From Alphaproteobacteria bacterium (lineage in GTDB: Bacteria; Pseudomonadota; Alphaproteobacteria; Rs-D84): 64,000 nucleotides of DNA. The stretch lies in the NCBI GenBank assembly GCA_009784815.1, contig WQXN01000001.1, positions 140,876 to 204,875 of the forward strand. Reading direction: 5' to 3'. The notes under the pieces were generated by a model, which ran no database searches, had not been told where the DNA came from, and saw only the letters and a program-made list of their open reading frames with translations. Below, in pieces: positions 8,139-50,866 of the stretch (position 1 is its first letter; every line of letters starts with the position of its first letter). The position numbers were made by a program, and so were the translations under genes.

Positions 8139-9611
8139 TTAATGCCGTTCGGTGGTGCGGCCGGGTTTACCCCCGAAAGCTGCGGTTATCAGGACGTTGT
8201 TTCCAAATCTTCCCTGTATGTCCTTTGCTATATCGTCGTATACGGACATCGGAATATCGGTCGATACGAACGTGCTGAAGTTGAGCGTGTCTACGGAATT
8301 TATTTCGATCTTTAATAGTTTCCCGTCCGGGCCTCGGTGCTCGTGGTTTTCCTTAACTTGGGTCAGCGCGTACGACACCCGCGAAACGTCCTTTATTTTC
8401 ATCAGATTGTTCGCAAGCTGCTCGCGTTCGGCGTAATCAATTTCCGCGGGCGAACCGTTGGGGTAGAACATGCGTACTTCGACTTGGTATCCGTCCACGC
8501 GTTTGCCGTCAAGTGTCACGCCGGTTGTGGAGATCGTGTTGCAGAGAGTCACATAATGCTGGGACAGCTTGTCCAGATCACTATAGTTGGCGATCCATCG
8601 CCCTAATATTTCTCCGGCCGCGCTTCGCATTTCTTTGAACCTGTCGTTTATTACTCCGTCTATTCCGCGCGATCCGTGGCCGTTGTTATCGGCGGTGTTC
8701 AAAAGCGCGGCGAAATACTGGCGTGTCTTCCATGTCGGGTCTAGTTTTTTTATTTTTCCGCTGGCTATGGCTTGTTCGATTCTATATCTGACTATTGCGT
8801 CGCATATTCCGGTAAAGTCTAAGGATCCATTATCAAGGGTTCCGTCTACGCGCACTCCTAAACCAGGGCCGGGGAAGGCCGGTTGATTATATAATTCCAT
8901 GCTTAGTCCAAGATGCTCGCCCAGAGAAATAACCTGATGCTTCCAAATCCATTCCAAGGGCTCGACCACTTCTATGTTCGAGTTTTCCAAGCGTTCTGCC
9001 AGCCAGGGCACTTCGTTATGATGCGTTTTGGTAAAAACGCCGGTTTTGCCCTTGCCGGATTCCGACTTGTCCGCCGCGTTGGATCCTTGGAAAAAATACT
9101 GTATGTCGCCGCGCATATCCGCATAGTCTCCGAATATGTCGGCGAACAGGTTCCCTATGATCTGACGGCGACCAAGATCCGTTTCTGCATCGTCGAAGCC
9201 TGTGGCTTTGGCGAGTTCTTTTATGTAACGGACCCTTTCGTCGAGATATATGATGTCGCCGAACTGTTCTTGGAGAAGTTTGAGAAGTCGGTCCGTTTCA
9301 TATCCGAAATCGTCTTCGGAACTTAGAGGATAATCGCGGCGCAAGAGGCCGGTGTTAACGAATACCGGAATTACTTTGTCATGGCCGTAAAATTTTCTGA
9401 GAGCGGCCAGCAATGTTGTGGAGTCTATCCCGCCGGATACCGCGACCATGACTTTCTTTCCCGGAGCAAGAGGGTAATTATTGGTTAGGTAGTCGAATAT
9501 TTGCTGTTCTATTACATCGGGGGCGATCTCAGCGTTTTTATCCGCGGTTGGAATTTTTTCTTTGGTAGGAAATTTTGAAACAAAATTATTAGGTCGTTTT
9601 AAAGATTGCAT
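8139..9611 (-). CDS. GMP-synthase-like PP-loop ATP pyrophosphatase without a glutamine amidotransferase domain
   Basis: PP-loop VAVSGGIDSTT. FPGPGLGVRV. C-terminal GGKPGRTTERH resembles the GuaA C terminus. ATG at 9611 with AAGGA RBS. The track's N-terminal extension runs through tRNA sequence. Confidence 0.55.
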   Translation of the reverse strand: MQSLKRPNNFVSKFPTKEKIPTADKNAEIAPDVIEQQIFDYLTNNYPLAPGKKVMVAVSGGIDSTTLLAALRKFYGHDKVIPVFVNTGLLRRDYPLSSEDDFGYETDRLLKLLQEQFGDIIYLDERVRYIKELAKATGFDDAETDLGRRQIIGNLFADIFGDYADMRGDIQYFFQGSNAADKSESGKGKTGVFTKTHHNEVPWLAERLENSNIEVVEPLEWIWKHQVISLGEHLGLSMELYNQPAFPGPGLGVRVDGTLDNGSLDFTGICDAIVRYRIEQAIASGKIKKLDPTWKTRQYFAALLNTADNNGHGSRGIDGVINDRFKEMRSAAGEILGRWIANYSDLDKLSQHYVTLCNTISTTGVTLDGKRVDGYQVEVRMFYPNGSPAEIDYAEREQLANNLMKIKDVSRVSYALTQVKENHEHRGPDGKLLKIEINSVDTLNFSTFVSTDIPMSVYDDIAKDIQGRFGNNVLITAAFGGKPGRTTERH

Positions 9612-9681: not shown

Positions 9682-9726
9682 TGGTGCCCGCAGCAAGAAT
9701 CGGACTTGCGCCTGGTCCTTACCAAG
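9682..9726 (-). pseudogene. 3' half of a disrupted tRNA-Thr(GGU)-like gene (anticodon loop to CCA)
   Basis: Minus strand reads CTTGGTAAGGACCAGGCGCAAGTCCGATTCTTGCTGCGGGCACCA. It pairs perfectly with the 5' half at 16772-16809. Confidence 0.7.
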
Positions 9727-9830
9727 TATGACCTGCATTTACCCAATGACTGACCGGGCGACAGACCGCAGATAAGAACCAGATACGCTTTATACGCTTC
9801 CCGCTTGGGGCACGGTTTATTGTAATCTGA

Positions 9831-9904
9831 TGGTGCCCGTAGCAAGAATCGGACTTGCGCCTGCCCCTTACCAAGGGGCTGTTCTACCACTATACTATAC
9901 GGGC
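9831..9904 (-). tRNA. tRNA-Thr (anticodon GGU), element-borne intact copy
   Basis: 74-nt cloverleaf. Acceptor GCCCGTA/TACGGGC, anticodon stem GCCCC/GGGGC, loop TTGGTAA, T arm GCAAG-TCCGATT-CTTGC, encoded CCA. The T loop is atypical (C at position 55). Confidence 0.7.
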
Positions 9905-10033
9905 ACTGCCCGCATATTATAACAGCAGATTTTGCGAAATCAATGTAAAATTCAGCAGATATTCAGTCCCCAGTTGAACCATTGCACAAACGATTATATA
10001 ATTAGATAAGAACTAGATAAAACCAAGAAAAAA

Positions 10034-11221
10034 GTGAGATACAATAAATTCGTCTTCGATAAGCCAACATTAAATAAACTGCCATTTCCCTTGCTTCCAA
10101 TAACCAAATACACCTATTACGATTCTTGCCAACCGGGCTTGGCTCTTATCATTACCTATGGTGGAACAAAAGCATTCTACTTTTGCAAGACGCTAAACAA
10201 TCGCACCATGACCTATAAAATCGGCGACTTCCCGTATATGAGCGTCGAGCAAGCACGAGCTAAAATATTTGAGATGTTGCAAGACTTGCAACAAGGTATT
10301 ACGCCAATGGATACCAAAAGTCAAAAACGCAAGACCGCTATCACACTCGCGGACTTCTTTAATAATGAGTATATTCCAAAACACCTAAAATTCAAAGTCG
10401 GCGAAAAACGCTGCGGAAGAATGACAAGCTATTTCAATCGGTGCTTTAAGCATATTAGCCATAAGCTACTCGGCTCTATAACGAAAGAAGAATTGGACAC
10501 CATGCATAAATCATTGGGTCAGAATAATGGAATATATGCTGCCAATGCCGCTATATGTTTAATCAAGCGCATATATAATCGGGCTATTGATACCGAATTC
10601 GCCATTAGCAATCCTGCTACGAAAATAAAGCTGTTCAAAGAAAAATCACGCGAACGATTTATCCAGCCTGATGAAATGCCTCGGTTTATGAAAGCATTGT
10701 TGGAAAGCGAAAACGAGCAAATGAAGAACTACACCCTTTTATTGCTTTTAACTGGTCAACGAGGTTGCAATGTAAAATCGCTTAAATGGTCGGACATTGA
10801 TTTCCATAATAATTCATTATATTTGGAGCAGACTAAAAACGGAGAATCGCAACGGATACCATTGACCGAACAAGCTATCGGTTTATTAAACCAAATCAAA
10901 GACAAGCGCACAGACAATAGCGACTTTATATTTCCGTGTCGGAATACTCAAAGCAAAAATGGATATATGAATAATCCAAATCCTTATTGGCGTGAGCTAT
11001 TGCAAAAAGCCGAAATAACAAATTTGCGTATGCATGACCTGCGCCGGACTATGGCAAGTTATCAAGCCATAATCGGCTCGTCATTAAACATTATCGGTAA
11101 ATCATTAGGTCATAAATCCATTCAAGCTACGACCATTTATGCCAAACTGGACTTGAATCCAGTTCGTGAAAGTATGCAGAAAGCCACTGATAAAATTTTC
11201 AATTTAAGCAATAATCAATGA
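10034..11221 (+). CDS. int: tyrosine recombinase / phage integrase (P4-like)
   Basis: LRMHDLRRT and LGHKSIQATTIYAKL catalytic motifs. N-terminal GLALIITYGGTKAFYF arm-binding-type domain. GTG start. Confidence 0.9.
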   Translation: MRYNKFVFDKPTLNKLPFPLLPITKYTYYDSCQPGLALIITYGGTKAFYFCKTLNNRTMTYKIGDFPYMSVEQARAKIFEMLQDLQQGITPMDTKSQKRKTAITLADFFNNEYIPKHLKFKVGEKRCGRMTSYFNRCFKHISHKLLGSITKEELDTMHKSLGQNNGIYAANAAICLIKRIYNRAIDTEFAISNPATKIKLFKEKSRERFIQPDEMPRFMKALLESENEQMKNYTLLLLLTGQRGCNVKSLKWSDIDFHNNSLYLEQTKNGESQRIPLTEQAIGLLNQIKDKRTDNSDFIFPCRNTQSKNGYMNNPNPYWRELLQKAEITNLRMHDLRRTMASYQAIIGSSLNIIGKSLGHKSIQATTIYAKLDLNPVRESMQKATDKIFNLSNNQ

Positions 11222-11454
11222 GTTATTAAACGCATAAGAATATTTTGCGTATGTGTCAAATTTGCTGCCCATTCCCATATAAATAACTTATATATCGGAT
11301 TTTAATTATTGCACTGATTGTGAGTCTTTATATTAAAATTTGTGTCTGAAATTTTTAATAGCGATTTTTGGCTATGTTAAAATTCTATTGTTAAAATAAT
11401 ATATTTTCAGAATGATTGATTTAGTGAAATTTGATAGTAGGAAGGTGGATTGCG

Positions 11455-12048
11455 TTAGTCAATGTATGTTTGGAATAGCATATTGGAAGTGAATAGGTTG
11501 CTTGTATCAATATATGGTTTGTTTAGCTTATATTCTTTGATAATATATTGGGACAATTTTTGTAAGTCATATACAGGTTTAATCAGCAAATGGTTTTGTT
11601 TAGGTGTATAGCATTTGTTTTTGGCCGATGGTGATTTGGATAAATCAATATCAAATGTGAATTTAGCTTTTTGATTGTTCATTGTCTTTATAAGTGATTT
11701 TTCTAGGTCTTCGATAGTTTTATGTTCAATATTCAAAATGGTATGGGCGTGTAATATATGAAGTTTGCCATGTTCGATAATGGTAAGGCTTTTATATGGG
11801 TGCTTATACCATTTTTTATTTTGCAATTTCGATAATAGTCCGGCAAGAATTGGGCGCAATGTTTCTTTGGCGGTTTCAATGTCTCTTTTGGGGTGGCAGA
11901 AATGAAGCGTCAAAAATATTAGGTTTTGAGGCTTGTCGGATTCGGATAAGACAAGGCTTCGTATCCAAGCGGCGAGTTCATGTTTTAATTGGTTGGCTGT
12001 ATCAGTCATGGCACAATAAGCATATAACTTTTGGGCAGGACAAGTCAA
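11455..12048 (-). CDS. putative HUH-endonuclease / rolling-circle Rep-like protein
   Basis: Ordered motifs IFLTLHF (motif I-like), LHAHTIL (HUH) and SQYIIKEYK (Tyr motif). The start is uncertain (TTG at 12048 or ATG at 12009). Confidence 0.4.
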   Translation of the reverse strand: MTCPAQKLYAYCAMTDTANQLKHELAAWIRSLVLSESDKPQNLIFLTLHFCHPKRDIETAKETLRPILAGLLSKLQNKKWYKHPYKSLTIIEHGKLHILHAHTILNIEHKTIEDLEKSLIKTMNNQKAKFTFDIDLSKSPSAKNKCYTPKQNHLLIKPVYDLQKLSQYIIKEYKLNKPYIDTSNLFTSNMLFQTYID

Positions 12049-12404
12049 TTTATCGCTGGAATAGTTAAATTATCATCGTTTTTAATTTTCATTGCATTGG
12101 ATATATGATTTTAGCGAAAGCGCATTGTGGGGCGATAAAATCGAGTGTTTTTGCAGTATTATTTGCTGGTTTGTATTTGGAACTTGATAAATTGGCTATT
12201 TCCTATTAAAATCCTAGGGAACCAAGTGGGAACTTGTGTTCAGGAGTGTCATAACTCCACATTTACACGGTGCGAAAGCATTGTTATCCAATAATGGTGT
12301 GATTGCACCGTTATTCCTGACTATGGTCGGGAAGTCGTGGCTATATAATACGAGCAATCGGAAAACCACGGAATCATCTGTAAATGTGATTTATGAACTT
12401 CCTG

Positions 12405-12434
12405 ACCACCTGTTTTCACAGGTGGTTTTTCTTT
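12405..12434 (+). terminator. intrinsic terminator
   Basis: accacctg-ttttca-caggtggt followed by a T run, 24 nt before the ATG at 12458. Confidence 0.6.
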
Positions 12435-12457
12435 AACGAAACAAAAGGGAGTTAGGA

Positions 12458-13351
12458 ATGAAAAAGTTTATTGTCTTATCGGTCGTTGTTGGACTATGTG
12501 GTTGTGTGTCTTTAACACCGGAAGAATTGCAACATCAAGACGATATTAGAAACAGCAAAGAAATAGCAAATTGGACACGAAAAGCAGTTATAGGCGACTT
12601 TTCAGATTCCGATATTGCAAAATGTAATACGGCATATCCAAGATTTAATGATTTAGCTCAAAAGGCAAATTTTACCGATAAGGAATCGAATGAGTTTAGG
12701 TCTAATGGTAGAATTTTAGACAAATGCATCAAAGTTAAAAAATCAGTAGAAGACGCTAAGGAATGTATTAGTCTGTGGGGCAACGAAATACCGGGAACAA
12801 CATTCTGGACCAAAAGCAAAGCAGAAGAACAATGCGATTGGTGGGGTGTTGACTCTTATTCACATAGCGACGGATTCTATCGTTCCAAGTCGGCGAATCA
12901 GTCTAAATATTGTTCTCGATATAAGCGTATTTTCGAGTTAAAGGCTTGTGCTGAAGCTACGGAAAAAGAATTGAGTCGGATAAACTCCATGATTGCTATT
13001 GACTCGGACAAAGCAAACGAAAATGTAGCTAAATATAGAGAAAATCGTGAAAAAAAGCTATGTAATGAAAACTATATAAAAGGTTGTTTGTTTAATATTC
13101 CCTCAATGCAAGTATCATCAGTCCATAAAGACGGAGTTCTGCTAAGAACATCAAACGCTGCTTTGGAAGCAGGCATTTTAACTGGTGGTATATTCGGAAC
13201 ATTATCGCCAGGTAATAATATTTTTGTTTATACGAAAGATACTTATTTCGACGGAAAAACATTTGATGATGGTAATTATTATTACGAATATGTTGGTTTA
13301 TACCAATATGGCAGCAGGACAATTCCAGCCTTCAAGCGTTCCCTATATTGA
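12458..13351 (+). CDS. probable lipoprotein, Cys-rich
   Basis: MKKFIVLSVVVGLCGC signal with lipobox-like motif. GGGAG RBS. 297 aa. Confidence 0.55.
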   Translation: MKKFIVLSVVVGLCGCVSLTPEELQHQDDIRNSKEIANWTRKAVIGDFSDSDIAKCNTAYPRFNDLAQKANFTDKESNEFRSNGRILDKCIKVKKSVEDAKECISLWGNEIPGTTFWTKSKAEEQCDWWGVDSYSHSDGFYRSKSANQSKYCSRYKRIFELKACAEATEKELSRINSMIAIDSDKANENVAKYRENREKKLCNENYIKGCLFNIPSMQVSSVHKDGVLLRTSNAALEAGILTGGIFGTLSPGNNIFVYTKDTYFDGKTFDDGNYYYEYVGLYQYGSRTIPAFKRSLY

Positions 13352-13364
13352 TAAGGAGTTAAAA

Positions 13365-13910
13365 ATGAAATTTGATACTTTCTTCTTTGATTCTATACCC
13401 TTGAAATGGAATAGGAAAACTCGTGAAATAGATAAGTCTGTATTTTGGAAACAGGCTGAAACAAAGCAAGGCTTTCAAGGAATATCAGAAGCGAAAGGTT
13501 GTTATATATTCGGTTTATCGTGCGCCGGTGGGTTAATGCCTTATTATGTCGGACAAGCGAAGAAGACATTTAAGCAAGAAGTATTTGGTCTTCATCAAAT
13601 GCGCATATACGATAAATGTATAAACAATAATAAAGGAACGCCAGTCTTGATTCTCGTATCCGCTATGACAGGCAAGAACGAGTTTTCAAAAGCTAATCAC
13701 GATAAGGTAATAAATTGGGTTGAAGACTTGCTTATAAGTTATGCGTTAGAGCGAAATCCGAAAGTTGAGAACTCATCAAAGACGGCTTATTGGAAGAATG
13801 TCGAAATTCCTGGATTATGGAAAACAGGCTGGGGCAAGAACACAAAAGACAGCAACGCATTGAAAAGAATGTTCTTCGGACAGCAAAGAAAAAAGAGTGC
13901 TTGCAAATAA
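13365..13910 (+). CDS. GIY-YIG-like nuclease-fold protein (tentative)
   Basis: GCYIFG-x8-PYYVGQAKKTFKQEVFGLHQ resembles GIY...YIG...R/H. Later Glu in WVEDLLI. ATG at 13365 with AAGGAG RBS, 13 nt after the lipoprotein stop. Confidence 0.4.
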   Translation: MKFDTFFFDSIPLKWNRKTREIDKSVFWKQAETKQGFQGISEAKGCYIFGLSCAGGLMPYYVGQAKKTFKQEVFGLHQMRIYDKCINNNKGTPVLILVSAMTGKNEFSKANHDKVINWVEDLLISYALERNPKVENSSKTAYWKNVEIPGLWKTGWGKNTKDSNALKRMFFGQQRKKSACK

Positions 13911-14019
13911 TCAAGCCAAATATAATGTTTTGTTAAAGTTAAAGGCGGTTCCTTAAAAAATACTGGAATTGTTGCCTATATTTTTGTAGCCTAGCCATTG
14001 AAGGGAATAATACTAGCCA

Positions 14020-15243
14020 ATGGCAAATAAGAATACAGACTTTTTCAAGAAAAAGCACGACTGGTCTATAATCAAAGACGAGTTGCTAGGGTGGTATCTT
14101 GCGCCATATTTTGCCAAGGTATTACAGACAAACAAGCCGATACTTTATATAGATTGTTTTGCTGGTAAAGGAAAATTTGAAGATGGTGCAGACGGCTCTC
14201 CATTGATTGCATTGAAAATAAAAAAGCAGACATTGGAACGCACAACGGCAACAAATCCACAAATTACGACTGGCTTTATTGACGCTAATCATGCAGACGA
14301 CCTAAAAGCGAACATTGTGTCTTATTTTCCTGACAATACAAAGCTACCAGTTATAGATGGTAAATACGAGGAACATATCGAAAACGCTCTTAAAAACAAG
14401 GGTAAGGCAAATGTATTTTTATACATAGACCCTTATGGTATCAAGGCATTAGACTATAATATGCTAACGAAATTTGCTAATTCTGATTTCAATAGCATTG
14501 AGCTTCTTATCAATCTAAATTCTTTTGGATTTTTGCGTGATGGTTGCAGGGTGCTAAAAGTCAAGGAAATGGAAGATTTTAGTAGCGAACTAGTTGAATA
14601 TGAACCGACCGAAGTTAAAGCTGATGACGAGTCAACCAAGTTATTGAATAGTATAGCTGGTGGTGATTATTGGCAACAAATTATCCGTGATTATAATGAC
14701 AATAAGATAGATATGTATCGTGCGGAGAAAATATTTTCGTTCCAATACAAAGAAAAATTGCGTGAAAAATATAAGTATGTTGTTGATATGCCATTGCGCT
14801 TAAAAAGCGAACAATTGCCGAAGTATCGCATGGTTCATGCTAGCAATCACCCTGACGCTTGTGTTCTTATGGCAGAAAATATTAGTTCAAAAGCGAAAGA
14901 GCTTGTGTTTGGCATAAGACGCAAAGGACAGCGGAGTCTGTTTGATATGAGTGCTGATTCAGACATTATAACAATAGATGAAATAAAAGACGGAATAAAA
15001 AAGGTATTGGATAAATTTACAACCGATACTCATTTGAACGAAGTCCTGGCAACATTTTTTAGCGATTATGGTGTAATATGTAATGTCAAAGATGTGAAGG
15101 ATGTTATGGAAGAAATGGAAAAAGTGAACGAAATAAAAGTTTCAAGAATTCCAGACAAAACGGATAAAGGTGCGAAAACGACTTTCTTTTCGGAACATGG
15201 AAAAAATCAAGTTATGATAGGAAAAGTATTAGGAAAAGTATAA
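14020..15243 (+). CDS. TcmP-like (three-Cys-motif partner) protein with methyltransferase-like motifs
   Basis: YIDCFAGKGKF...GSP (FxGxG) and LYIDPYG (DPxG). Homologous to the ORF at 29160. Stop overlaps the next ATG (TAATG). Confidence 0.55.
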   Translation: MANKNTDFFKKKHDWSIIKDELLGWYLAPYFAKVLQTNKPILYIDCFAGKGKFEDGADGSPLIALKIKKQTLERTTATNPQITTGFIDANHADDLKANIVSYFPDNTKLPVIDGKYEEHIENALKNKGKANVFLYIDPYGIKALDYNMLTKFANSDFNSIELLINLNSFGFLRDGCRVLKVKEMEDFSSELVEYEPTEVKADDESTKLLNSIAGGDYWQQIIRDYNDNKIDMYRAEKIFSFQYKEKLREKYKYVVDMPLRLKSEQLPKYRMVHASNHPDACVLMAENISSKAKELVFGIRRKGQRSLFDMSADSDIITIDEIKDGIKKVLDKFTTDTHLNEVLATFFSDYGVICNVKDVKDVMEEMEKVNEIKVSRIPDKTDKGAKTTFFSEHGKNQVMIGKVLGKV

Positions 15244-16019
15244 TGCCGAAAGTGAATGGATATATTGAACGGAAGTCAATGCTTTACAAGACAGGCGTAG
15301 AGTATGGCGACTACACAATGAATCATGCGATTGGTTGTTCGCATGGTTGCAAATATCCGTGTTATGCTTTTTTAATGGCTCGCAGGTTCGGCAAAGCGGC
15401 CAATTATGAAGAATGGATAAAGCCTATTCTCGTAACGAACACACTTGAATTATTGGATAAGGAAATTCCAAAAATGAAAGACAATATAAAGTCTGTGCAT
15501 TTGTGCTTTACAACAGACCCTTTCATGTATGGCTATGAAGAAATAAAGAAGATGAGTTTAGCGGCTATAAAGAAACTAAATGAAGCTGGCATAAAGTGCA
15601 CTGTTTTAACCAAGGGCATTTTACCGAAAGACCTATCAAAGCTTTCAAAGAAAAATGAATATGGGATAACGCTTGTTTCCTTAAATGATAAGTATCGTAA
15701 AGATATAGAGCCTGGGTCTGCGCCATATAAAAGCAGAATTGCCGCATTAAAAGCCTTGCATGACGCAGGATTCAAAACATGGGTTAGTATTGAGCCTTAT
15801 CCAACTCCGAATTTAGTGGAACAGGATTTAGACGAAATTCTAGAAATTTTAGCATTCACGGATAAAATCATATTTGGCAGAACGAATTACAATTCCGAAG
15901 TTTCAGCATACAAACAACATAAAGCCTTTTATAATGAGCAAGCTAGGAAAGTCATAGAATTCTGCAAAAAGCGTAAGATTGATTACCATATAAAGAATGG
16001 AACTATTACAGAGGCTTAA
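15243..16019 (+). CDS. radical-SAM-fold protein of the SplB / DNA-photolyase-like (COG1533-type) class, with a variant Cys triad
   Basis: GCSHGCKYPCYAF (C-x3-C-x3-C), CFTTDPF, LTKG, RIAALKALHDAGFKTWVSIEPYP. Confidence 0.6.
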   Translation: MPKVNGYIERKSMLYKTGVEYGDYTMNHAIGCSHGCKYPCYAFLMARRFGKAANYEEWIKPILVTNTLELLDKEIPKMKDNIKSVHLCFTTDPFMYGYEEIKKMSLAAIKKLNEAGIKCTVLTKGILPKDLSKLSKKNEYGITLVSLNDKYRKDIEPGSAPYKSRIAALKALHDAGFKTWVSIEPYPTPNLVEQDLDEILEILAFTDKIIFGRTNYNSEVSAYKQHKAFYNEQARKVIEFCKKRKIDYHIKNGTITEA

Positions 16020-16771
16020 AGTCTTCGGATAAATAATAGTATGATTATCAATGCGTTTCAGCGAGGGTCGGTTGTATATGTTTATGGCAGGCATAAAAGG
16101 CTGCTTGGGTCTTACAATGGCGACTTGCAAAACCACACGAAAAATACGGTATCAATAAAAAGGGGCAATGTGGTCTATGTTTACGATTTCGAGGGAAATC
16201 AGGTCGATAGCTACAATTATTAAAATTGTATAACTCTTTGATATTAGCTTATTTCTGGTTTTTGGCGGAAAATTGAAATTATTTTTTCTTATGTTATAGT
16301 GCTTATTAAACATATCAATAAATGGTATGTATAACAAAAGAAAAAGAGAGAAAGTATGCAGTATTATTATACGCTAAAAAACAAAGTCAAAGAATATGAA
16401 GAATGGAGAGAAAAAACCCCAAAAACAGAATATAAAACTCTATATCATATAGGAAAAACACTCGATGAGTTAAAAGAATTTTTATCCTATCTAGACAGGC
16501 TTCATCAAATCAACGAACAAAAAGTTTTACTTTCTTAAAAGTAATCCTATCTCTATTATTTTATATAATAGAGATATAAAACGGAACATGACGCCATTTA
16601 TTTTTTTGCAAATTTTCTGATTTTTTACGCATTTTTAATTTCAAAAACTTGATAGAAACTTGAAACACGACGCAGTATGCGGGTCATCAAAAAACATCAA
16701 TATCTTTATCTAGTTGAAAATTGTTGAATCTTTTGTGCAACCGAGTGGGGATTGGGCTAGTGACTCGTATT

Positions 16772-16809
16772 CTTACCAAGGACCCGTTCTACCACTATAC
16801 TATGCGGGC
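16772..16809 (-). pseudogene. 5' half of the disrupted tRNA-Thr(GGU)-like gene (acceptor to anticodon loop)
   Basis: Minus strand reads GCCCGCATAGTATAGTGGTAGAACGGGTCCTTGGTAAG. TATAAT lies 10 nt upstream (16820-16825). Confidence 0.7.
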
Positions 16810-16829
16810 GATCCCGCAGATTATAACCT

Positions 16830-17573
16830 TTATATGAAGAAAATCAACAATATTATTCCAAGGACTACCCGGTAGGCCGCAAACGCCGCGAATGAGAAAT
16901 GGCGGACGAATCTAAGCATGAATCTTATCGCTAACAATGAGAATATGGCAGAAAGTCCCACCGTCCAGGCGGTAGCCGCCCAGTTTATGGCTTCGTCGCT
17001 GGTTACGGCCTTGATAAGTTCGTAACAGCCGGCCGCGCCGATCGCCGGCATCGACATTAAAAACGCGAAGTCCAAGGCGTCTTTCCGAGAAACGCCACGC
17101 GCACGCATCGCCGTGACCGTTATTCCGCTGCGCGATACTCCGGGTATAAGCGCAAGCACTTGCGCGCAACCCGCTATGAAGGCTGTGCGCATTGATACCT
17201 CGCGTTCGCTTTTGCCGAACCGATCTGCCGCATATAAGAGGATTCCGAATACTATTGAATTTATCGCTATGATCGTAATTCCGCGCGGTGGGTTTATCAG
17301 AAGTCCAAGCGCCAGTACGGGCACAACAGATACGGCGAGTTTTGCCGTCAGAGACCAATCCTTGAACGTCAAAATCTGGGCCACCCGCGCGCGGTAATGC
17401 CACATGACCGCAAGCAGGGCGCCCACATGAGCTGCTACGTCTATAAACATTCCTTGGTCCTCTACGTTTAGGACCGAAGGCAAAAGCGCCAGGTGCGCGG
17501 ACGAGCTTACCGGCAGGAATTCCGTAAATCCTTGTATCGCCGCGAGAAGCATTATGTAATCGAGTGTCAGCAT
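16830..17573 (-). CDS. uppP: undecaprenyl-diphosphate phosphatase
   Basis: FTEFLPVSSSAHL and PGVSRSG motifs. Polytopic membrane protein. Confidence 0.85.
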   Translation of the reverse strand: MLTLDYIMLLAAIQGFTEFLPVSSSAHLALLPSVLNVEDQGMFIDVAAHVGALLAVMWHYRARVAQILTFKDWSLTAKLAVSVVPVLALGLLINPPRGITIIAINSIVFGILLYAADRFGKSEREVSMRTAFIAGCAQVLALIPGVSRSGITVTAMRARGVSRKDALDFAFLMSMPAIGAAGCYELIKAVTSDEAINWAATAWTVGLSAIFSLLAIRFMLRFVRHFSFAAFAAYRVVLGIILLIFFI

Positions 17574-28801: not shown

Positions 28802-28877
<76 letters not shown>

Positions 28878-50329: not shown

Positions 50330-50866
50330 ATGGCTAAACTTAACGCATTGTGCGATAACTTGGGTTCACGTCCCGGCAAAAAGCGCGTCGGGCGCGGAAT
50401 GGGTTCCGGCAAGGGCAAGACCGCCGGCCGCGGACACAAGGGGCAGAAAGCCCGTTCAGGAACTTCCGGCGTGCGCACCTTCGAAGGTGGTCAGACGCCG
50501 ATTTATCGCCGCTTGAACAAGATCGGATTCTTTAACATCTTCCGCAAGAATTTCGCCGAAATCAATATCGGAAAAATCGAAAAAGCGATTGAAGAAAAAA
50601 AGCTTGTCGCGGACAAGGTTATTGACGTCGCCGCTTTGCAGACCGCAAGGCTTATTAATCGCGCCGAAGGCGGATTGAAAGTCCTTGGCGAGGGTAAACT
50701 TACCAAGGCTTTGAAAATCGAAGCCGTCAAGTGGACCAAATCCGCCGAGGAAGCTATTAAAAAAGCTGGCGGATCCATCGCGGCTCCGGCCAAGAAAGAA
50801 CCAAAAGCCAAGGCCGAAAAGCCCGCTGCGAAAAAGGTTGTGAAGAAAAAAGCGGTTAAGAAGTAA
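50330..50866 (+). CDS. rplO: 50S ribosomal protein L15 (Lys/Ala-rich tail)
   Basis: GRGMGSGKGKTAGRGHKGQKARSG. Confidence 0.95.
   Translation: MAKLNALCDNLGSRPGKKRVGRGMGSGKGKTAGRGHKGQKARSGTSGVRTFEGGQTPIYRRLNKIGFFNIFRKNFAEINIGKIEKAIEEKKLVADKVIDVAALQTARLINRAEGGLKVLGEGKLTKALKIEAVKWTKSAEEAIKKAGGSIAAPAKKEPKAKAEKPAAKKVVKKKAVKK

Follow-up and report, generated by a model that had tools for sequence, protein, structure and literature searches.

A stretch of 64,000 nucleotides (hereafter the window) was analysed from contig WQXN01000001.1 (GenBank assembly GCA_009784815.1; positions 140,876 to 204,875, forward strand) of an uncultured gut or termite-type alphaproteobacterium. In this window a resident tRNA-Thr(GGU) gene is split in its anticodon loop by a 7,045-bp island (9727..16771), which is bounded by direct 9-bp repeats and contains, besides a tyrosine integrase gene, a second and complete tRNA-Thr(GGU) gene (9831..9904, minus strand). 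Related integrases are found in islands of the canonical kind, which rebuild the tRNA gene that they enter. It is likely that the island integrated through an integrase event at a 9-bp core and brought its own replacement tRNA with it.

According to the favoured mechanism, the tyrosine integrase would recombine the 9-bp core of the element's attachment site (attP) with the anticodon loop of the resident tRNA-Thr(GGU), which serves as the host site (attB). The resident gene would thereby be split and not rebuilt, its promoter and 5' half staying by uppP and its 3' half by guaA. The whole tRNA-Thr(GGU) of the island, which has its own promoter and stands between attP and the integrase gene, would then supply the lost function. 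The element may be able to excise, and precise excision would restore the host gene exactly, because both halves are undecayed.

A resident tRNA gene split at a 9-bp core

The first-pass annotation had read two segments of the minus strand as the halves of a single resident tRNA-Thr(GGU) into whose anticodon loop an integrase-bearing island had inserted, and both read exactly as it claimed. The 5' piece with the core (16809-16772; GCCCGCATAGTATAGTGGTAGAACGGGTCCTTGGTAAG) comprises the acceptor 5' strand, the D arm and the anticodon-stem 5' strand (16781..16809, minus strand) on the host side of the left junction (attL). The 3' piece with the core (9726-9682; CTTGGTAAGGACCAGGCGCAAGTCCGATTCTTGCTGCGGGCACCA) comprises the anticodon-stem 3' strand, variable loop, T arm, acceptor 3' strand and CCA (9682..9717, minus strand). 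The 5' half is preceded by a sigma-70-like promoter, TTGATT-16-TATAAT (16820..16847, minus strand; promoter scan, 10/12 matches), which overlaps the 3' end of uppP. The 3' half lies 70 bp upstream of the guaA-like gene and, with the core, 308 bp from the start of the integrase gene.

Deletion of 9727-16780 in silico, a check that the annotation had proposed, yields a second ARAGORN tRNA-Thr(GGU) at the join, and the joined 74-mer forms a normal cloverleaf. In the window as it stands ARAGORN reports two tRNAs only, the tRNA-Thr(GGU) at 9831-9904 (minus strand) and a tRNA-Ala at 28802-28877. Neither attL nor the right junction (attR) gives a tRNA call by ARAGORN or Rfam, and Rfam does not report the isolated halves even at a permissive E-value, the halves being recognised by direct sequence comparison. 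The compensated stems described earlier are also found: three paired positions (6:65, 27:41 and 28:40) distinguish the split gene from the intact copy, and each gene compensates within itself. Joining cognate halves creates no new mismatches and gives a cloverleaf with a folding free energy of about -25 kcal/mol, whereas the two host/island chimeras each gain two stem mismatches and reach -16 and -17 kcal/mol. Since the stems are compensated within each gene and the chimeras are mismatched, the halves form a valid tRNA solely with each other.

The left copy of the core, CTTGGTAAG in the tRNA sense (16772..16780, minus strand; attL), consists of the anticodon loop plus one base on either side, and the right copy lies at 9718..9726 (minus strand; attR). 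On the plus strand this 9-mer (CTTACCAAG) occurs at 9718, at 9867 in the anticodon loop of the intact copy, at 16772 and at 50699; it is expected about 0.25 times per strand in 64 kb, and the occurrence at 50699 is due to chance. Both repeat pairs were recovered independently by a repeat search (D3 at the right core, D5 at the left core). As had been stated before, the sequence reads so that nothing matches beyond the 9-mer, which is the sole identity at both junctions and therefore the crossover core. The absence of a replacement 3' half next to the retained 5' half at attL was also borne out on reading the sequence. Because attP has only these 9 bp in common with the target, the tRNA is rebuilt at neither junction. 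Before integration the host site would have read ...GAACGGGTC-CTTGGTAAG-GACCAGGCG... (attB), and the circular element would have carried ...GCAGGTCATA-CTTGGTAAG-AATACGAGTC... (attP). A transposon target-site duplication was rejected, as there is no transposase and the tRNA sublocation is the one that related integrases also use.

The core is present in a third direct copy, at 9867-9875, which is the anticodon loop of the island's own tRNA. In principle the integrase could recombine this copy with either junction, and a chimeric tRNA and a smaller circle would result.

On one side the insertion is flanked by uppP and aspS, and on the other by a gene for a guaA-like PP-loop protein and by UDG. 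The guaA-like protein has its nearest homologues in metagenome-assembled genomes (MAGs) labelled 'Rickettsiales bacterium'. Two loci, L005 and L007, are syntenic with the window in the order AspRS-UppP-(GT2)-tRNA-Thr(GGU)-guaA-APH-UDG. Relatives free of the island had been expected to hold an intact gene, and L005 and L007 do hold one intact tRNA-Thr(GGU) at the locus, together with neither integrase nor cargo. Downstream of the 3' half, the flank can be aligned with the sequence that follows the intact tRNA of L007, and the promoter of the 5' half can be aligned with those preceding the orthologous tRNA in both loci. From the synteny, the aligned downstream flank and the like promoter it follows that the resident orthologue is the split gene and that the insert is an island. 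The GC content is about 28-39% over most of the island, compared with about 48-55% in the flanks, and the drop, from about 50% to about 36%, falls exactly between the 9-mers.

Another assignment would take 9831-9904 as the true resident, 9682-9726 as the displaced fragment of an older, deleted canonical island, and 16772-16809 as a piece that came with the present island or by rearrangement. At tRNA hot spots one often finds tandem scars of a tRNA and a displaced 3' fragment, the 104-bp spacer between the intact tRNA and the right junction has a host-like GC content, and at a related locus, L013, an intact tRNA is likewise followed by a decayed remnant. Nevertheless, this assignment is improbable. 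Paired with 9717-9682, the 5' half of the intact gene leaves two mismatches in the anticodon stem, whereas the distant 5' half pairs perfectly; this distant half stands behind a promoter abutting uppP, as the orthologous gene should, and the GC drop starts exactly at the 9-mer.

Exact copies of the UppP and the integrase of the window are carried by only two other contigs (ENA ERZ27264051 and Logan SRR10512954); each contains the island and matches the window at 99.99% identity. They bear on the suspicion that the window is a chimeric metagenome contig, in which two strains were joined at a repeated tRNA sequence. The sequences concerned are metagenome assemblies, tRNA repeats can mis-join, and the contigs of the nearest relatives break just past the integrase gene. 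Such an artefact is nonetheless hardly credible, since the two assemblies, which may not be independent of each other, show the same structure at that identity over both junctions. Furthermore, the junctions fit a single insertion, and a mis-join would not give matching half-genes 7 kb apart with a common 9-mer.

The wider distribution of the gene was surveyed in JGI metagenomes with a pattern taken from the tRNA 3' half. Full genes were found in all 29 matching contigs (29/29), in which the gene often adjoins UDG; none was of the island type and none lay beside an integrase homologue. The same pattern gave no match in viral contigs.

In seven of these loci (L097, L099, L100, L103, L107, L108 and L115) the tRNA-Thr(GGU) lacks the usual TTGATT...TATAAT promoter and is preceded by recurring sequences instead; L103 and L115, for instance, have gcgaaggagtgcccaccg...ggcgaaggcgggccagcc. 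Downstream motifs such as ggtattaca are also common to several of these genes. They may represent other insertions at this locus.

The island tRNA and the integrase family

The complete tRNA-Thr(GGU) of the island, called by ARAGORN and scored by the Rfam tRNA model at 62.5 bits, lies between both cores, at a distance of 104 bp from the right junction and of 130 bp from the start of the integrase gene. A promoter of its own precedes it, TTGATT-16-TATAAT with an extended TG (9916..9943, minus strand; promoter scan). Because the intact copy is located between the 9-mers and has this promoter, the island supplies a whole replacement gene, and the function of the resident gene is probably replaced by the island tRNA. 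The earlier conclusion that the resident gene is destroyed is thus correct as to the disruption of the gene; as to the loss of its function it does not stand, in view of the intact copy (9904-9831) inside the island.

If there were no replacement, tRNA-Thr(GGU) function would be lost at the locus and the intact copy would be an unrelated resident paralogue. This account agrees with the missing 3' half after the retained 5' half at attL, and with the sequence differences between the intact copy and the split gene. It is very improbable all the same: the intact copy lies between the cores, within the low-GC insert and 130 bp from the integrase gene, the syntenic relatives hold one tRNA-Thr(GGU) at the locus, and the pairing of integrase and tRNA-Thr is repeated in L013.

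Two features of this tRNA-Thr(GGU) family are unusual. U55 is near-universal in the T loop of tRNAs, and the T loop here, UCCGAUU, has a C at the position where it is expected. An A·A mismatch in the D stem is kept in the host copy, the island copy and the relatives. For both features the independent copies are those of the window, L005, L007 and L013, the metagenome copies L089-L117 having been chosen by a pattern that contains the T loop.

The integrase gene (10034..11221, plus strand; 395 aa) is divergent from the island tRNA. Its product shows an N-terminal Arm-DNA-bind_3 domain (Pfam, 7e-10) and a catalytic Phage_integrase domain (4e-27), and corresponds to the integrase family PHROG 1 (5e-55). 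Five residues of the catalytic type, R243, H334, R337, H360 and Y369, are invariant across the family alignment. The nearest integrase homologues are 45-54% identical.

For comparison, 80 related integrase loci were taken from species-representative genomes, mostly of gut or termite Alphaproteobacteria (Candidatus Enterousia, 'Rickettsiales') and some of other phyla. Around 20 of them have an intact tRNA (Lys, Met, Thr-CGU/UGU, Gln and others) 4-7 kb beyond the integrase gene. Upstream of this gene, usually at 141-234 bp, an exact 44-49-bp copy of that tRNA extends from position 28-33 to CCA. At 14 loci an exact direct repeat of 44-49 bp begins at tRNA position 28-33, and several more are partial (also L016, L018 and L021). 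As these repeats run from the anticodon stem-loop to the tRNA 3' end, the integrase family crosses over in the anticodon loop and normally carries a rebuilding 3' half. A classification of tRNA sublocations for integrating islands by Williams in 2002 reportedly includes the anticodon loop. The element in the window has the same geometry as these relatives, with the integrase gene near the displaced 3' half, but its identity with the target is limited to 9 bp. A canonical 3' half from the element would be unfit for this host, because the host/island chimeras are mismatched; a whole gene would free the element from the need for a 3' half that matches the stems of each host.

Full tRNAs were also encountered near the integrase gene in L025, L029, L039, L063 and L072. 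They were rejected as further cases: either they are ordinary genes of the host, or ARAGORN has forced a fold on a canonical 3' half.

The locus most similar in layout is L013, from the termite-gut 'Rickettsiales' MAG GCA_031279085.1, which is syntenic and encodes an integrase 50% identical and a UDG 75% identical to those of the window. A full tRNA-Thr(GGU) lies 109 bp from its integrase gene in divergent orientation and is followed by a decayed tRNA remnant, GCCCGC|GGACCA...AGTCCGATTC...TTGC, so that integrase, full tRNA-Thr and decayed remnant are arranged as in the window. A homologue of a 197-aa cargo protein of the island is present as well. This layout supports, though not conclusively, the view that the tRNA gene would belong to the integrase module of this sub-lineage.

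The closest integrase relatives, L009-L012 (52% identity; Candidatus Enterousia MAGs), have neither a tRNA nor a tRNA fragment near the integrase gene. L009 and L010 are identical up to a point by a terminator hairpin about 170 bp upstream of the integrase gene (locus position about 9830) and then diverge, and this branch is suggested to target a non-tRNA site. The five nearest relatives, L009-L013, all lie at contig ends just beyond the integrase gene.

Several points weigh against integration with a replacement tRNA. The reading of L013 is ambiguous, as its contig stops 1.5 kb past the integrase gene and the left junction falls outside it (a second look-up returned the same contig). The island-type tRNA, with its anticodon stem GCCCC/GGGGC, occurs nowhere else in the JGI metagenome scan, and no same-species empty site or excised circle was found among the assemblies carrying the flanking UppP or the integrase. 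No excisionase candidate appeared among the island open reading frames (ORFs) in the family and PHROGs scans. Only 64 kb of the genome is visible; the genome may hold another tRNA-Thr(GGU), or a tRNA-Thr(UGU) that reads ACC/ACU, and the island tRNA may then be non-essential. Lastly, we infer from the sequence that the island tRNA is expressed and complements the broken gene, that it is essential and that the element is currently mobile, and the first two of these count among the weak points.

Mobility is also where a further interpretation differs, namely that the island is a fixed and immobile remnant, whose 9-bp repeat marks an old event and which has no ongoing function beyond the completed gene replacement. 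No empty site, circle or second insertion of the exact element was found in the assemblies and metagenome scans, the remnant in L013 has lost the core, and no excisionase was recognised. On the other hand, the integrase ORF is full-length and retains the invariant catalytic residues of the family, and the host halves and cores are undecayed and perfectly complementary, which argues for a recent event. A fixed remnant thus seems rather unlikely, though it deserves serious consideration.

Attachment-site flanks, cargo and neighbouring genes

The flanks of the presumed attP contain traces of tRNA sequence. On the 5' side of the right core (tRNA sense; 9727..9760, minus strand), the left flank of the reconstructed attP resembles a decayed tRNA-Thr 5' half. 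When these 34 nt are aligned with the host 5' half, anchored at the core, the shuffle p-value is 0.006 and none of about 950 background windows of the island reaches the score. The likeness is weaker on the 3' side of the left core (16732..16771, minus strand), the right flank of the reconstructed attP, where 40 nt show a colinear likeness to a decayed 3' half (shuffle p=0.035, with a score that 2% of the background windows of the island attain). With the comparison extended into the promoter, p is only about 0.01-0.03 and some island background windows score higher. The reconstructed attP gives no ARAGORN tRNA call even at lowered thresholds, and the canonical relatives show no tRNA resemblance on the 5' side. 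These alignments are suggestive of an attP that is a decayed second copy of the tRNA-Thr gene.

Near both ends of the island a 22-nt inverted repeat (I8; 9982..10003 and 16719-16740) is 82% complementary, and its arms have the common sequence TTGCACAAA. The arms are candidate arm-type sites of the integrase.

Besides the integrase, the island encodes several cargo proteins. Following the integrase gene is the 197-aa ORF (11455..12048, minus strand), which has no family match; a tblastx comparison of L013 with the window shows a homologue of it beside the related integrase there. Farther along in plus-strand order are a lipoprotein-like ORF and a 181-aa ORF, and two 60-aa ORFs come last. Between 14020 and 16019 on the plus strand lie the genes for TcmP (three-Cys-motif partner, 407 aa; NCBIfam TIGR04474, 8.7e-32) and a radical SAM protein (258 aa; Pfam Radical_SAM, 1.6e-15), whose start and stop codons overlap. 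This pair matches the PADLOC candidate systems PDC-M30 (A/B) and PDC-M41 (A/B); it is a candidate defence system and likely represents the selective cargo of the island. Phage structural or lysis genes were not found in the island, the PHROGs matches being only the integrase and a radical SAM family of unknown function.

A near-threshold match to the Rfam family sRNA-Xcc1 was noted at 12326-12414 (plus strand; 46.9 bits against a gathering threshold of 53, E=4.8e-6). A terminator-like hairpin (12404-12427) closes this match, which precedes the lipoprotein-like ORF and, in plus-strand order, the 181-aa ORF.

Outside the island, the guaA-like gene (8139-9611, minus strand) encodes 490 aa and comprises the PP-loop/C-terminal part only. 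Its closest homologues (P0122-P0128) have 650-690 aa with an N-terminal glutamine amidotransferase (GATase) domain, and no GATase-like sequence is found within the 64-kb window. Nor does the window have the GT2 and APH genes seen on the flanks of this locus in L005 and L007.

Relation to known systems and meaning

Integration with a tRNA of the element's own is a design already published as tRNA-dependent lysogeny, in which a tyrosine integrase uses an attB in a tRNA gene with a core of about 10 bp and the phage provides a complementing tRNA of the same isotype (Guerrero-Bustamante & Hatfull, mBio 2024, PMC10865867). Experimental demonstration, in 2024, was limited to actinobacteriophages, namely Fionnbharth/K4, Cluster L and Gaia; integrants there need the element tRNA to survive, as the host tRNA is essential and single-copy (PMC10865867). 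Mycobacteriophages with 8-10-bp cores and a cognate tRNA have sisters whose cores measure 43-44 bp, mycobacteriophages commonly cross over in the anticodon loop, and Lj965 of Lactobacillus johnsonii is cited as a probable case outside the actinobacteriophages (PMC10865867).

The resemblance of the present element to these phages is close. Both have a tyrosine integrase with an arm-binding N-terminal domain and cross over in the anticodon loop of a host tRNA attB; in both the core is 8-10 bp, no tRNA is rebuilt at attL or attR, and the element tRNA has the same isotype and anticodon; and in both close integrase relatives use a canonical core of 43-49 bp. However, the element described here is a 7-kb island with no recognisable phage genes, to which the term lysogeny is not applicable. 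Its host is an uncultured alphaproteobacterium, whereas the hosts of the phages are actinobacteria. In addition, nothing but its tRNA stands between attP and the integrase gene, at 104 bp from the core, and the flanks of attP look like a decayed second tRNA. Of the defining features, an island integrase, an attB in a tRNA gene, a short core and an element tRNA with a promoter are all found, and a temperate phage is not. By its sequence-level features the element would therefore work like tRNA-dependent lysogeny as a non-phage member of it, with a presumed need for its own tRNA.

With canonical islands the element has in common the tyrosine integrase at one end, the tRNA target, the displaced 3' fragment proximal to the integrase gene and the direct repeats at the ends. 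Islander defines such islands by island sequence that regenerates the disrupted tRNA and by a displaced fragment at the other end (PMC4383910). In the window the displaced fragment and the integrase are found, but the target is not regenerated at attL, where a weak likeness (p=0.035) follows the left core in place of a tRNA 3' half, and the repeat measures 9 bp as against about 45 bp.

A comparable substitution is reported from Sinorhizobium meliloti, where phage-related sequences substitute a host tRNA gene with one of the same isoacceptor, and the process is likened to tRNA-dependent lysogeny (PMC11476347). As here, the host is an alphaproteobacterium and the element brings a tRNA of the same isoacceptor; the integrases and hosts are different, and the elements there are described as phage-related.

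Split or fragmented tRNAs of archaea, such as the tRNA-Thr(GGU) locus of Caldiarchaeum (PMC3293823) and the split tRNAs of Nanoarchaeum, have also been attributed to mobile elements. Common to both is a tRNA broken next to a recombinase-bearing insertion, the match in Thr-GGU being coincidental. In the archaeal systems the halves are rejoined by the splicing machinery or introns are concerned, whereas the host here is bacterial and has a whole replacement gene. Expression as halves in the Nanoarchaeum manner was ruled out: inspection by eye found no complementary leader and trailer, only a 6-nt chance match CCCAAT/ATTGGG, and the host is bacterial (uppP, aspS, dnaA).

The element thus offers a clear natural example, new in host group and element type and with canonical sisters to compare, but no new principle. 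It extends tRNA-dependent integration to a non-phage island, a different phylum and an integrase family with otherwise canonical members. The contrast between the rebuilding core of 44-49 bp and the 9-bp core with a whole gene bears on the question, left open by the authors of the phage study, of how the two designs are related. For annotation, islands of this sort will be missed or mis-called by island finders that require a regenerated tRNA together with a displaced fragment, and in tRNA scans the copy on the island will be listed as the host gene. It is possible, and proposed here tentatively, that the element is an evolutionary intermediate, whose attP would be a decayed duplicate of its own tRNA-Thr, with promoter, 5' and 3' remnants and an intact core, and whose sisters still have canonical 3' halves of 45 bp; the whole gene would make it independent of stem compatibility with the host tRNA and widen its host range, and imprecise loss of the island would be lethal. 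If this were general, replacement tRNAs would serve small non-phage defence islands in two ways, as a host-range device and as an addiction device.

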